A DNA stretch of 64,000 nucleotides. It comes from Phoronis australis. Taxonomy: Eukaryota > Animalia > Phoronida. Below are positions 33,301-36,508 of the stretch, piece by piece. Below the pieces are notes generated by a model, which was given only the letters and a program-made list of their open reading frames with translations, was not told where the DNA came from and made no database searches. Location of the stretch: positions 88,646 through 152,645 of the forward strand of contig NMRA01000519.1 in assembly GCA_002633005.1 (NCBI GenBank), in the 5' to 3' direction. Within the stretch, counting starts at the first letter, position 1. Every line of letters begins with the position of its first letter. The translations under genes were made by a program, and so were the position numbers.

Positions 33301-36300
33301 AGCCCAGTTTATGTGAATATATACCCGATCCTTAAATGCCACCAAGGACTTGAAAACCTGGATGAGTAATATTTAAACATGGCTAAAGACTTAAAAATGC
33401 TATATCTATCTCCTTGCCCACCACTTGATTTTTTTTTGTTTTTTTTTTCAACTGCGCCTTCGTGACGGTGTGATTTAAGGCAGTTGTAGATTCATTGATT
33501 ACTATGGTAAACAAAATGGGAAGAATTCATAGTTGTTGTACGTAGGCAGGGTACTTTTGTCGAGTTTGGTTCGTGCTTATCGAGATTCACAAGTATGCTA
33601 TGCGTGATCTACATGTAACTGCGTTTACAACGATCCATACACCCTTTGCATGAAATTGACCCAAACGTCACCTGTCAAATTCACATCTGGTCTGTTCAGA
33701 CAAGTTAAACCATTGTTCGACGAAATCGGCGTTCTTCAAGACATTTGTAGACAATTCACTGACGTGCTTTACACCGCTATAACTCCAGTTGGTATACAGC
33801 TCCACCGACAGCTGTTGAAGCATCTGTACTCGTGATACTCGGCTAGAGAAGAACTCGTCTAAAAATTAAACAGTTAAGCTCATATGAAGAAAAACACGAC
33901 ATAATTATGTATCGAGAACCGAAATTCGACGACTTATGCAAGATTCTGATAAATAATTAACCTGCTTCGTTATTCGAGTACTTTCTATCCAAGAAATCAG
34001 ACCCAGTCATGAAAAATCGGGGTCATTATTGGTTAGGGTGACAGAGCTAATAATAGTATAAATGTTTTGTTAATTGAAGGATTTAGCAAACACATGTACA
34101 GAAAGTGCAGGAAAAACATAAGAGAAATGAAAATAATAAACTACAAGTGGGACTCACAAAAACACAAAAATCGGAAAAATAGTTCCACTTTGGTCCGAAA
34201 AATAATAAAATAACACTAGATAAAAGATTAAACATATGAAAATACGAACAACATACAAATAAATAGTAAAAGATGAAATTCTTAATCCCCAAAGAAGTTA
34301 ATTCCATATAAAAAATAAACGACGGATTTAAACGAAATTAAGTTAAACAAAACCGCAAGGTAGATGATTAAAACAAGGGAGAAATTGTTCCAGGCCCGAG
34401 TACCACTGGGACCCCAGTGTGAATGAATTATCCTGCTTACCAAACAATGTCTTCAAATCAAGTAATATTTTTGAACCATTCATAAAGACCTCCTCGTACT
34501 CTGCATTGTCATACAGATCCTGAATATAAGTATCCCTCATGCTGGTGTCGGCCAAGCGCCGGAAACCGCTGGAGACCACGTCAGCGAGCTTGGTGACGTT
34601 GACGCTGGCATCTGTGATTGGACATCGTAAACATCCATGAGATTTTCCGCATGGGAATAACACACATTTAAATCCACATGTTCCACTCGAGTAAAAGAGA
34701 ACTAAATATGCAATAGTTGGGAGGCGGGGAATACCTATGGTATTTTAAATTAAAGAGGCCTATCAAGCAACTGTGATCAATATGCAGTAGTGGGGGGTAT
34801 CCCTATGGTATTTTAATATAAAGAGGCCTATCAAGCAACTGTGATCAATATGCAGTAGTGGGGGGGGGGGTATCCCCATGGTATTTTAATATAATGAGGC
34901 CTATCAAGCAACTGTGTTCAATATGTTAATGATATGTAAATGGCTGAAATTTATGTGCAGGAACTTGCGCTTGAAGTCACAAATTCCCCGCTTTTATTTA
35001 CAAAATACTAAGAAACAACCCCATGACTCGATAAGCAGTCAAATTAGAACACAAAAGAACTCTATCTGACGATATGGAAATGAGATTATCTCGAGTTACG
35101 GTCTTCTATTGCTAGAAAAAAGTATACGTACTGTGAAATCGGACAACGTATCACAGAACTTTTGCCATCCTTGATATTGTTAAGTGTGACAAATTGCCAG
35201 ATATTGCTAGCAGTTTCCCTGTGTCTTGTGGTACATTAAAGAATGATGACAACTACCGTGGCTGGTGATTGTGGTAACTTAGTAATAGCGGAGTTGCAAC
35301 CGCGCCAGTATGTTAAGAGCAATTCTCAGGTGCCATAAAGTGTAGGAAACTAATAGGCGTAATGGCTTGCTTTTTTCTACACCGAGCGCCATTGCGAGAA
35401 TCCCATTTTAATTCAGACACCTGCGCCAATAACACCCGAACGTACTGGGTTTTTTTTTGTTTTTTTTTATTTAGACCCTTCTTGTTTTCGGTTTCTTCAA
35501 TTTTGTGCTAAGATTTCAACGTGAGGCAATATGGTGCGAAAAGACAACCCCGCCTATTATTTGACAAGCCTACATTTAAGTGGTTATACTCGGTTTTTCT
35601 TATTTTTCTAAGACTTTCCTGCTAATACCAGGTTATCAGAAAAGACCTAAAAGAACAAAATTGTGTTGAAGTTAAGATGAATCCTGCATTCGTAACATGT
35701 AAGTGAGAACTATAAGAATGTAACATACACCAATACCTGAATGTTGGCTGTTAGCTCCGTTAAACAAAAGAATATGCAGCACTGTCAATACTGGCAGAAC
35801 TCCGAACTTCTTCGTCGCCTTGAATGACGGGATACCAATCAAACCAAACGTGTTCAAAAGGAAAGTTAAAACGTGAGACAACATATTCCTGTATTTCCAG
35901 AGACGCTCGAAGAGGGATAAACTTGTCTTGAGCACAAAATTATTACTGTGCACACTGGTCGAAGAAGACATAACAGTGACCAGAGGCAATTCCAGTTTCC
36001 CAGTGAAACACTGACCAAAACTTACACTGCTTCCTTTCGGGACGACTGTGAACTTGCGATTCTCGCAGAATTCTTTTCCGCTTTTAAACACACTTTTGAT
36101 GACATATCCTCGATAGACGGCGTCCCTACAGTTTCTATAGACGTCATCACAAAATTCTTCGCAAACGTGAAGAATCCTGCCTCTCAAGAACAGATTTTGA
36201 ACAGGTGAACAAATGTAACACATGAGAGCGTTGATGTGAAGCACGCACGACGGTGAGGCACCGCCCATGGGTTTCACGCTACCGAACATGAGATTTATGT

Positions 36301-36508
36301 CAACGTTTGTACAACAGCTGTTGTTGGCGTACACGGTGCAGTTGTTTAAGTTCGGCTGTGGCTGCGGCTGTCTGGAATGAAACAGTGTGCATCCCCCAAC
36401 CTCGTATAATGTAGAGTTACAAACTTGAAAAGAAGACTCGTTGTTTTCTGTCGCACAGACATGGAGGATAACGCAGAAATGGATAACAGGTGAGACCTTA
36501 TGTCGCAT
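6151..36508 (-). CDS. Multi-exon gene: VWA + double-dCache protein of the alpha2delta/CACHD1 family, with an N-terminal folate-receptor-like domain and a C-terminal GPI-like signal
   Basis: GT-AG exons, mostly phase-consistent, give family motifs in the expected order: [37 protein letters not shown] (MIDAS), [86 protein letters not shown], then a hydrophobic C-terminus. A few junctions (around 27950-29350, 19133-19814 and 18372) are unresolved. Confidence 0.9.
7556..7694 (-). CDS. alpha2delta-like gene exon
   Basis: [35 protein letters not shown] boundaries and phase match. Confidence 0.85.
8029..8170 (-). CDS. alpha2delta-like gene exon
   Basis: [37 protein letters not shown]; phase 0 in and phase 1 out fit both neighbours. 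Confidence 0.75.
8657..8870 (-). CDS. alpha2delta-like gene exon (second dCache)
   Basis: [16 protein letters not shown]...KVNYQDRC; gtaagt donor. Confidence 0.85.
9507..9687 (-). CDS. alpha2delta-like gene exon (Cys-rich insert plus dCache GVIAVD strand)
   Basis: Manual translation [47 protein letters not shown]; tttcag acceptor, gtgagt donor, phases match. Confidence 0.85.
9534..10692. repeat. ~580-bp direct duplication across a single N (probable haplotype or contig overlap artifact)
   Basis: 9534-10113 is nearly identical to 10115-10692, with a few SNPs/indels. The junction is the N at 10114. Confidence 0.85.
10707..10975. mobile_element. hAT-like MITE with 5-bp TSD
   Basis: Termini cactggcggatctag and ctaaatctgcctatg, flanked by gacca on both sides. 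Confidence 0.7.
11261..11418 (-). CDS. alpha2delta-like gene exon (second dCache)
   Basis: [38 protein letters not shown]; tttcag acceptor and gtaagt donor. Confidence 0.9.
11668..14190 (+). mobile_element. Decayed, 5'-truncated non-LTR retrotransposon of the RLE type (HERO-like)
   Basis: Frameshifted ORFs carry RT motifs ([50 protein letters not shown]), a CCHC knuckle [27 protein letters not shown], and endonuclease motifs LRRDIILWS / VPWEE / EVGCRGF. Antisense within a host intron. Confidence 0.9.
15483..16293. repeat. Direct duplication across the single N at 15825 (haplotype overlap), with a ~125-bp indel between copies
   Basis: 15483-15824 is repeated at 15826-16293; the second copy has an extra segment at ~15969-16094. 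Confidence 0.85.
16693..17027. repeat. Minisatellite, 85-bp unit, about 4 copies
   Basis: Unit agttcaacattgcatcactacaggctacgtaccctcgatgatatgtcactttgtgagaaggggagggtatgggatacttatggc. The N at 16850 makes the true copy number uncertain. Confidence 0.9.
18020..18371 (+). mobile_element. CR1/L2-clade LINE reverse-transcriptase fragment
   Basis: [42 protein letters not shown]...[21 protein letters not shown]; in-frame stop; cut off at N 18372. Confidence 0.9.
18373..18515 (-). CDS. alpha2delta-like gene exon (3' end lost at the N join)
   Basis: [16 protein letters not shown]...[16 protein letters not shown]. Confidence 0.85.
18909..19132 (-). CDS. alpha2delta-like gene exon
   Basis: [36 protein letters not shown]; gtgaga donor, phase 2 fits the next exon. 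Confidence 0.8.
19815..19937 (-). CDS. alpha2delta-like gene exon (3' boundary uncertain)
   Basis: tatttcag acceptor, phase 1; [20 protein letters not shown], the last strand of the first dCache. Confidence 0.6.
21880..22556. mobile_element. Long palindromic (foldback) MITE with 8-bp TSD, P-element- or hAT-like
   Basis: ~300-bp imperfect inverted arms starting cacaggcgtcctcag and ending ctgaggacgcctgtg. Perfect attttcac duplication at 21872-21879 and 22557-22564. Confidence 0.9.
23166..23376 (-). CDS. alpha2delta-like gene exon (first dCache)
   Basis: [28 protein letters not shown]...TRYHYSYIK. Confidence 0.8.
23973..24102 (-). CDS. alpha2delta-like gene exon (first dCache)
   Basis: Manual translation [43 protein letters not shown]. 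Confidence 0.9.
24511..24674 (-). CDS. alpha2delta-like gene exon (first dCache)
   Basis: Manual translation LRAFFDFL...[23 protein letters not shown]; gtgagt donor. Confidence 0.9.
26653..26747 (-). CDS. Probable alpha2delta-like gene exon
   Basis: Open frame between tgtttcag and gtaagt; phase 0 donor fits the exon at 24674. No diagnostic motif. Confidence 0.45.
27950..28192 (-). CDS. alpha2delta-like gene exon (VWA beta4; boundaries uncertain)
   Basis: AAFRESILL...[10 protein letters not shown] matches the VWA C-x-Q-x-I-x-x-I-T-D motif. Confidence 0.7.
29350..29589 (-). CDS. alpha2delta-like gene exon (VWA)
   Basis: [50 protein letters not shown]. Confidence 0.85.
31417..31605 (-). CDS. 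alpha2delta-like gene exon (dCache N-half plus VWA MIDAS)
   Basis: [16 protein letters not shown]...[28 protein letters not shown]. Confidence 0.95.
31712..31978. mobile_element. hAT-like MITE, same TIR family as 10707
   Basis: cagtggcggatt ... ggatccacccctg; flanks acatc/ccatc. Confidence 0.7.
32795..32935 (-). CDS. alpha2delta-like gene exon (VWA_N region)
   Basis: [43 protein letters not shown]; ttttcag acceptor and gtaagt donor. Confidence 0.85.
33672..33858 (-). CDS. alpha2delta-like gene exon
   Basis: [22 protein letters not shown]...; phase 1 in and phase 2 out match both neighbours. Confidence 0.8.
34441..34611 (-). CDS. alpha2delta-like gene exon (N-terminal helices)
   Basis: [42 protein letters not shown]; gtaagc donor. 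Confidence 0.8.
34732..34925. repeat. Short tandem repeat, ~66-70-bp unit x3
   Basis: Unit c.atggtattttaa..aa.gaggcctatcaagcaactgtg.tcaatatg. Confidence 0.85.
35737..36508 (-). CDS. First coding exon: signal peptide + folate-receptor-family Cys-rich domain + hydrophobic segment + second signal-like peptide
   Basis: Cys spacing C..P.....L..C..Y..NSCC...C..H...LMC..CSP....[12 protein letters not shown]...FC...CF is typical of the Folate_rec family. Donor TCA G|gtattg (phase 1) is compatible with the acceptor at 34611. Confidence 0.85.

Follow-up and report, generated by a model that had tools for sequence, protein, structure and literature searches.

Viral glycoprotein polyproteins are cut at internal signal sequences, and the strategy of cutting one chain in the ER into two surface proteins is, to our knowledge, mostly known from viruses. 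An internal GPI signal was tested in 1991 with an engineered construct, and PMC2288913 reports that it was processed in cells, although about fivefold less efficiently and with part of the fusion secreted intact. A double-AA-motif dCache_1/VWA group was described by Gumerov et al. 2022 (PMC8915833), and PMC8980814 refers to an 'undescribed clade of alpha2delta-like homologues'. Neither paper mentions a folate-receptor domain (zero occurrences in both texts and in six supplements of PMC8915833), internal signals or processing. CACHD1, as reported in PMC7615972, binds a related cysteine-rich domain (CRD), that of Frizzled, in trans. No description of a chain combining a folate-receptor-type CRD with a VWA/dCache protein was found in the literature searched; a review of Frizzled/HHIP-type CRDs could mention it.

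Such a chain is predicted from the window, the whole stretch of 64,000 nucleotides of Phoronis australis DNA analysed here. A folate-receptor exon supported by RNA (35737..36579; all features lie on the minus strand) continues in frame into a VWA/dCache gene of 21 exons whose stop lies at 6149. The start codon (36508) lies in this folate-receptor exon, which also encodes the CRD, the two hydrophobic segments and the predicted site of cleavage; its ORF (36508-35672) begins directly 3' of an in-frame TAA. An alternative start at M209 was set aside, as four in-frame ATGs lie between M209 and M1. An RNA joint 38260-36579 (1 + 7 reads with a shorter side of at most 65 letters, GT donor) adds a non-coding 5' UTR exon, mapped at its 3' end (38260..38324), which makes the folate-receptor exon number two or later. 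Downstream, a phase-1 GT/AG intron (34612..35736) contains the read-through stop 35672, and its GT donor after 35737 and CAG acceptor before 34611 keep the frame. An AATAAA also occurs inside this intron, at 35471. The layout described in the earlier note, with a signal-like N-terminus, a Cys domain, a Ser-rich stretch, two hydrophobic segments and an in-frame phase-1 donor, was confirmed.

The remaining exons were assigned by homology. Fifteen of them (18367..34611) encode the N-terminal stalk helices, the first dCache, the VWA and the start of the second dCache: 34611-34441, 33858-33672, 32935-32795, 31605-31417, 29589-29350, 28145-28012, 26747-26653, 25239-25147, 24674-24511, 24102-23973, 23579-23556, 23376-23166, 19937-19815, 19104-18909 and 18515-18367. 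RNA reads show five of the joints in this part. The last six (6149..11418, which the RNA mapping did not span) are 11418-11261, 9687-9507, 8870-8657, 8170-8029, 7694-7556 and 6340-6149, and encode the rest of the second dCache, a Cys-rich C-terminal region and a GPI-signal-like tail with the stop. Down to the stop at 6149 the exons have AG/GT ends and zero internal stops, with the exception of junction 18367/11418, which lies beside an N and was entered as X in the predicted protein; a micro-exon scan from 18366 to 11419 found none.

The N-terminal part starts with a predicted signal peptide (aa 1-20, 36449..36508, from hydropathy), followed by a folate-receptor-fold CRD with 12 Cys (aa 40-168, 36005..36391). 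The Cys domain of Folate_rec type proposed earlier is borne out by a Pfam match over aa 42-148 (E 5e-17) and by a predicted structure (pLDDT 92) that resembles Juno (Z 10.9), riboflavin-binding protein (RBP, 10.8), NPC1-NTD (10.7) and HHIP-N (7.4), with rmsd 3.1-3.6. Vitamin binding, on the other hand, is not supported because the folate-binding loop and residues are missing: in the family profile compared with FR-beta, Leu stands at the folate-binding Asp position, the SWRKER loop is lost and other sequence takes the place of the segment that follows the last aligned Cys (the key residues for folate being D, W, R and H; compare PMC10199209).

The large part contains a VWA within a dCache and a second dCache. 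Its MIDAS half-site, DGSSS, is encoded in exon 31605-31417; the later Asp is present and, judged by eye, the Thr position is Ser. R.W[YF] occurs twice in most homologues; in Phoronis, G replaces Y in the first of these amino-acid motifs, and the second falls across the X-marked junction 18367/11418. In Phoronis and six homologues the chain ends 0-5 residues past a hydrophobic tail; the C-terminus resembles a GPI signal, in line with the GPI-anchored second part postulated in the earlier note. Membership in alpha2delta proper did not hold up, since the family profile is equidistant from alpha2delta-1 (313 bits) and CACHD1 (306 bits) and three homologues, all fused (XP_013417008, XP_009021325, XP_004993504), are filed in the separate double-motif group (PMC8915833 Dataset S3). 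In the comparison with the CACHD1 FZD-interaction domain, the profile match to 8S7C stops at residue 813 of 1102. A 16-row tree joins the Phoronis large part, on a long branch, to the bilaterian fused proteins at 100/97. This tree left out Helobdella, the second Sycon gene, several unfused rows and rows with no species name, and replaced a 35-row tree set aside for long-branch warnings and an incomplete careful search; alpha2delta was placed from the profile bits and Dataset S3, its sequences lying outside both trees. Sequence comparison therefore assigns the large part to the ancestral 'double-motif' group, neither alpha2delta nor CACHD1.

The earlier note had proposed one reading frame for both parts, and relatives agree: Folate_rec plus VWA/dCache occur in one chain in 8/11 long homologues. 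Single-chain fusions were found in Lingula, Tubulanus, Lineus, Owenia, Helobdella, Sycon (two genes) and Salpingoeca, a range taking in marine worms, a leech and a brachiopod as well as a sponge and a choanoflagellate. A word-based search with the exon had returned 0 longer homologues among 955 candidates, a sensitivity miss, as HMMER later recovered them. The CRD and the first stalk helix occur together in 37/158 proteins. In 18/24 short homologues a single frame leads from the CRD into the stalk helix, and the sequence stops close to where the next Phoronis intron lies; this suggests one exon without splicing. Of the 92 members of an Atlas cluster, which may be the query's own, 96% carry Folate_rec and 96% VWA. 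Each unit also exists alone with its own signals, the CRD cassette is repeated twice in three proteins, and a 121-row CRD tree, built on few columns, interleaves fused and stand-alone forms. Mis-merged gene models involving the CRD exist as well (P0157, P0226). A lineage-specific read-through fusion of the FrLRR type was rejected in view of the conserved single-chain and single-frame forms. Taken globally, the homologues indicate that the fusion is real and ancient, extending from a choanoflagellate to bilaterians.

Between the two parts, 27/33 fused homologues present two distinct hydrophobic cores. The first begins a median of 21 residues past the last Cys; the corresponding figure is 22 in the 74 stand-alone paralogues, whose chain stops at that point. 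It has an omega-like triad upstream in 29/32 homologues, as do 56/74 stand-alone tails but only 15/33 second cores. By a composition classifier, correct in 77/91 and 66/74 leave-one-out cases, the first core is GPI-type in 26/29 and the second signal-like in only 13/29. Apolar runs are short in both, with a median of 14 (at least 19 in none) in the first and 13 (at least 19 in 1/29) in the second. After the second core, 26/29 have a polar c-region of small residues, compared with 13/29 after the first; the rule is loose, as only 16/33 true signal peptides satisfy it. The -3,-1 rule was dropped as a cleavage test for lack of discrimination, being satisfied by 31/33 second cores, 26/33 first cores and 26/34 true signal peptides. 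The second core has a length and position that suit a cleavable signal, a property on which neither this rule nor the classifier discriminates. The loop between the cores reaches 115 residues and is K/R-rich (246 K/R versus 96 D/E among 1573 residues; K/R exceeds D/E in 28/33), and its similarity is at shuffle level (median score 20 versus 21), compared with 89 versus 20 for the first helix. P0061, with a single hydrophobic segment between CRD and large part, is left unexplained by a two-pass topology. The family layout looks like SP-CRD-GPI signal / basic loop / SP-VWA-dCache-GPI signal, a reading adopted because the first segment matches the C-terminal GPI signal of the stand-alone paralogues.

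The Phoronis copy departs from this scheme. A Ser-rich stretch lies at aa 181-188. Where the family has its internal GPI signal (aa 181-203, 35900..35968), the SSST cluster is kept and the hydrophobic core has decayed, with a best 12-residue hydropathy mean of about 1.0 versus a median of 2.7 in fused homologues. A displaced segment (aa 209-228, 35825..35884; best 12-residue Kyte-Doolittle mean 2.0), which may stop transfer or anchor the CRD unit, lacks an omega-like site upstream, and the read variants F216S and P227Q weaken it. The hydrophobic segment that the earlier note placed at aa 209-226 is thus present, but weak in this copy, and its proposed role as a membrane anchor is modified by the family, where the first segment corresponds to a signal for GPI attachment and not to a simple anchor. 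Next comes an internal signal-peptide-like segment (aa 230-254, 35747..35821) with KATKK (aa 230-234), a second hydrophobic core (aa 237-248, mean 2.55) and ANS|Q (aa 252-255). Its counterpart in homologues aligns with the alpha2delta-1 signal region, which supports the signal-peptide position claimed for it earlier. The classifier called both Phoronis segments the opposite way (+2.2 and -1.5). The Phoronis copy is fast-evolving, and its first GPI signal has decayed.

The ORF alternates hydrophobic signals with a basic loop, as polyproteins do, and from these conserved patterns we infer, as the somewhat favored reading, one precursor that is cut in the ER into two separately anchored surface proteins. 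Mechanistically, the first signal peptide would direct the CRD into the lumen and the first hydrophobic segment would stop transfer. In most family members, cleavage at the upstream small-residue site would let a GPI anchor replace that segment; in Phoronis the CRD may instead hang on segment 209-228, because the first GPI signal has decayed. The basic, unconserved loop would remain cytosolic and then be discarded, while the second segment would restart translocation and be cut by signal peptidase (in Phoronis at ANS|Q255). The large part would subsequently receive its own C-terminal GPI anchor. Of the two products, the small one would be a cysteine-rich protein with the folate-receptor fold and the large one a VWA/double-Cache protein from the double-motif group. 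They would be made in equal numbers and would probably form a two-subunit surface receptor, in which the Cache domains would sense amino acids and the CRD would be a protein-binding partner, not a vitamin receptor. A complex prediction for the Lingula CRD with two large-part pieces (the VWA excluded) scored 0.76, against 0.00 and 0.00 for swap controls and 0.79 with chain 2 replaced, and was not used as evidence.

The topology of the earlier note involves a single cut: signal peptidase would free the large part, leaving the CRD held by a short, conventional transmembrane helix followed by a cytosolic tail. For the family we regard this as unlikely, given that the first core of homologues is short, its omega-like triad is retained and the tail after it is unconserved. 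It may nevertheless be the true state of the Phoronis copy, where the canonical first segment has decayed and segment 209-228, with no omega-like site, is followed by KATKK; PMC2288913 cites one construct that no longer received a GPI anchor when it carried a cytosolic tail. Equally improbable is the absence of any cut, with the two segments forming a membrane hairpin, the CRD and the VWA/dCache part remaining in one covalent chain, and the second segment acting like the transmembrane helix before the stalk helix of bacterial dCache receptors. Bacterial dCache_1 domains do have a membrane helix just upstream of the stalk helix (PMC8915833), and less than half of the second cores are signal-like by composition. 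Moreover, long n-regions, reported to disfavour cleavage in yeast (PMC11579918), and cytosolic basic residues can lower signal-peptidase cleavage (PMC11579918, PMC11756421). Against this, both cores are short for stable anchors, the c-region after the second is frequent (under the same loose rule), and the loop has no conserved sequence.

At the transcript level, the folate-receptor exon is covered at depths of 5.5 and 3.6 in RNA runs X1 and X2, and runs X3 and X4 of the four gave no coverage of it. The joint 35737/34611 proposed in the earlier note is not among the RNA joints listed, but the depth fits splicing at 35737: bin 35116-35779 shows 0.34 and 0.30 in X1 and X2, where 0.36 and 0.23 are expected if spliced and 0.90 and 0.58 if read through to the stop. 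The splice is thus supported by read depth and homologues rather than by a seen joint, which disfavors a folate-receptor ORF ending at its own stop. Two adjacent genes, or an occasional read-through product like amphioxus FrLRR, with the CRD ORF stopping at 35672 and the large gene starting elsewhere, could draw on the unlisted joint, the low read counts, the intronic AATAAA and the mis-merged CRD models, but are very improbable given this depth, the lack of an in-frame ATG in the last 189 intron bases before 34611, the single-frame short homologues and the phylogenetic span of the fusion.

If the two-product precursor is correct, it would constitute a conserved natural internal GPI signal and internal signal peptide in one cellular precursor, and the sister group of alpha2delta and CACHD1, ancestral and without an assigned function, would gain a built-in partner, so that its role could be tested directly in Salpingoeca rosetta or in marine invertebrates. 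Database labels ('alpha2delta-3', 'hypothetical') obscure this two-unit design. A more tentative extension is that pre-animal tandem signal-domain-GPI cassettes gave a natural cellular 'GPI polyprotein' and a heterodimeric amino-acid sensor, ancestral to alpha2delta and CACHD1, with the CRD later split off into a gene of its own or lost and CACHD1-Frizzled CRD binding as a possible echo.

Compared with known systems, the Phoronis CRD has the fold common to folate receptors, riboflavin-binding protein, Juno, NPC1-NTD and HHIP-N, and its stand-alone paralogues share the GPI-type tail of folate receptors, yet it is shorter, with 12 Cys, and lacks the folate-binding loop and the Trp-rich segment. 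The alpha2delta proteins (CACNA2D1-4) and the Phoronis large part share the VWA inside a dCache, the second dCache, the MIDAS half-site and a GPI-like tail; the former, however, form a separate clade with no upstream CRD cassette. CACHD1 follows the same ectodomain plan but has a transmembrane helix and a cytosolic tail, whereas the Phoronis chain finishes in a short hydrophobic end and encodes its own CRD. Amphioxus FrLRR likewise fuses a folate-receptor-like domain devoid of folate residues to another GPI-type surface protein, but is a species-specific read-through fusion, one chain with no internal signals reported in the part of PMC10199209 drawn on here. Finally, viral polyproteins and the DAF-hGH construct of PMC2288913 share the alternating stop-transfer and signal segments, the latter indicating that an internal GPI signal can be processed. 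The arrangement in the Phoronis family occurs naturally in cells, is conserved and carries two predicted GPI signals per chain.

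On the minus strand, the open reading frame 36508-35672 begins immediately downstream of an in-frame stop and encodes a cysteine-rich domain (CRD) of the folate-receptor fold (Folate_rec, aa 42-148, E 5e-17); beyond it lie, in order, a Ser-rich run, the hydrophobic segment 209-228, KATKK, another hydrophobic core and ANS|Q255. The in-frame fusion that the earlier note had described holds: a phase-1 GT donor after 35737 and a CAG acceptor before 34611 keep the frame between the CRD exon (36579-35737) and the first exon of the VWA/double-dCache unit, hereafter the large part. Tracing guided by tblastn with ten homologues yielded 22 coding exons to a stop at 6149 (minus strand), about 1347 residues, with AG/GT ends throughout and no internal stops; one junction, 18367/11418, adjoins N and is written as X. 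The intron at this junction carries a fragmented non-LTR retrotransposon (11790-14249, plus strand; RVT_1 E 1.7e-12). Near-identical duplicated blocks at 9534-10695 and 15623-16293 (583 nt at 98.8%, taking in a further partial copy of exon 9687-9507, and 202 nt at 99.5% adjoining an N gap) are likely assembly artefacts, and an imperfect inverted repeat of about 680 nt (21880-22556, 79% identity) is probably a DNA transposon remnant. Further along, genes of similar appearance follow one another over 41235-63000 (minus strand). They show a weakly Sushi-like exon (E 0.044), one transmembrane exon and cytoplasmic tails dense in charged residues; exon 41235-41981 is transcribed (depth up to 20).

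The two-unit architecture is real, ancient and assembled from known parts. Among the matches listed (the best 150 of 235 phmmer relatives), 8 of 11 proteins longer than 900 residues combine Folate_rec and VWA/dCache in one chain, with fused proteins in Lingula, Tubulanus, Helobdella, Sycon and Salpingoeca rosetta, and further ones in Owenia, Lineus and a second Sycon gene. Across 158 proteins, 37 showed the CRD together with the first stalk helix; in 119 the CRD was present but no helix matched, and 2 had no CRD match. Stand-alone CRD proteins terminating at the first hydrophobic segment occur in Saccoglossus, Branchiostoma, Paramacrobiotus, Trichoplax, Macrostomum, Telonema and Pharyngomonas; unfused paralogues of the large part form a clade that is common across invertebrates, and three proteins have two CRDs in tandem. 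Four database homologues (P0061, P0064, P0097, P0113) contain two serial CRD cassettes with hydrophobic segments after each; two others, from Glandiceps and Diadema (P0157, P0226), link the CRD to unrelated proteins and are probably mis-merged gene models. Prokaryotic VWA + Cache proteins of 570-595 aa (P0227-P0229, one labelled Kariarchaeaceae) match the family profile at about 1e-52. The fusion is apparently undescribed, as no description was found in the literature searched (mostly non-subscription papers, figure contents aside), and it may have been noted elsewhere, since automated domain databases already label both domains on fused proteins.

We consider it fairly probable, from sequence features of the linker, that the precursor is processed into two surface proteins: the first segment would direct GPI addition, the second signal-peptidase cleavage, and the C-terminus a second GPI addition. 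The linker set comprised 33 fused proteins, after removal of three cluster mates and P0093 (terminal Cys motif not found), and was scored with simple, purpose-made rules based on known signal features rather than with SignalP or NetGPI. At a fixed cut-off, 27 of the 33 have two separate hydrophobic cores, joined by a basic, unconserved loop; P0061, with a single core only before the large part, counts against the model. The first core starts a median of 21 residues past the last Cys; in the 74 tails of stand-alone proteins the figure is 22. An omega-like triad of small residues lies upstream of the first core in 29/32 homologues (a spurious call in the window's own protein having been removed), compared with 56/74 stand-alone tails and 15/33 second cores. 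In the 29 proteins left after four more were removed (cores mis-called or single), a composition classifier read the first core as GPI-type in 26 and the second as signal-type in only 13, and in 25 it ranked the second above the first in signal likeness. Alignment places the second core, which is short, on the signal region of alpha2delta-1. The -3,-1 rule did not discriminate, which also counts against the model.

The triads of the homologues argue against a single cut leaving the CRD on a transmembrane segment, which we regard as unlikely. However, the window's own first GPI-like signal has decayed and the classifier reads both its segments opposite to the model, and it is for this copy that the single cut is most plausible. 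Equally unlikely overall is the absence of any cut, with the two segments forming a membrane hairpin.

Two separate genes are very improbable, even though the joint 35737/34611 was not among the RNA joints listed when four RNA-seq runs (X1-X4) were mapped over 22500-42400. Depth in bin 35116-35779 (0.34 and 0.30, small counts) agrees with the join: it is close to the values predicted for an exon end at 35737 (0.36 and 0.23) and not to those for read-through only to the stop (0.90 and 0.58). Moreover, 18/24 short fused proteins stop within 18 residues of the position of the window's next intron; we infer that these are unspliced genomic frames, in which case a single exon would hold the entire join and a merger of gene models would be ruled out. 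The gene has coverage from X1 and X2, with reads on a single strand; the CRD exon lacks coverage in X3 and X4. At least six RNA joints fall within the gene, one of which (38260-36579) reveals an upstream 5' UTR exon. The listed read variants include no indels in the CRD exon, and of the 9 in the coding portion of this exon, 6 alter the protein, among them F216S in the first hydrophobic segment. Were the intron retained, the frame would close (35672-35736, minus strand) with a further hydrophobic, GPI-signal-like stretch, a form of which the read depth gave no sign.

The predicted CRD structure (pLDDT 92) is tied among Juno (Z 10.9, rmsd 3.6, 135 aligned), riboflavin-binding protein (10.8, 3.2, 127) and NPC1-NTD (10.7, 3.1, 130). 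Unlike folate receptors, it is missing the folate-binding loop and acidic residue, which speaks against the vitamin-binding-type receptor of the earlier note. Because these are absent while strongly conserved non-Cys positions include R46, D70 (Glu in 97%) and Q104, the CRD is a candidate protein-binding surface. The alpha2delta-like label is borne out as relatedness and not as membership of alpha2delta proper, the large part being equidistant from alpha2delta-1 and CACHD1. In the available text, Gumerov et al. (PMC8915833) place three fused homologues in a root-proximal double-motif group, with an amino-acid motif in both dCache domains, and derive both families from it; the listing there has no vertebrate, tunicate, fly or nematode members. 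In an unrooted tree, on a long branch, the window's protein clusters with bilaterian fused forms (support 100/97); its first amino-acid motif is degenerate.

The architecture, together with the reported binding of CACHD1 to a related CRD (PMC7615972), suggests a partnership between CRD and large part, sensing of amino acids and a possible link to channels. In an engineered construct, an internal GPI signal is reported to function, though about fivefold less efficiently than normal (PMC2288913). Two-product processing is a proposal that the sequence motivates well. The processing of viral polyproteins offers a parallel.
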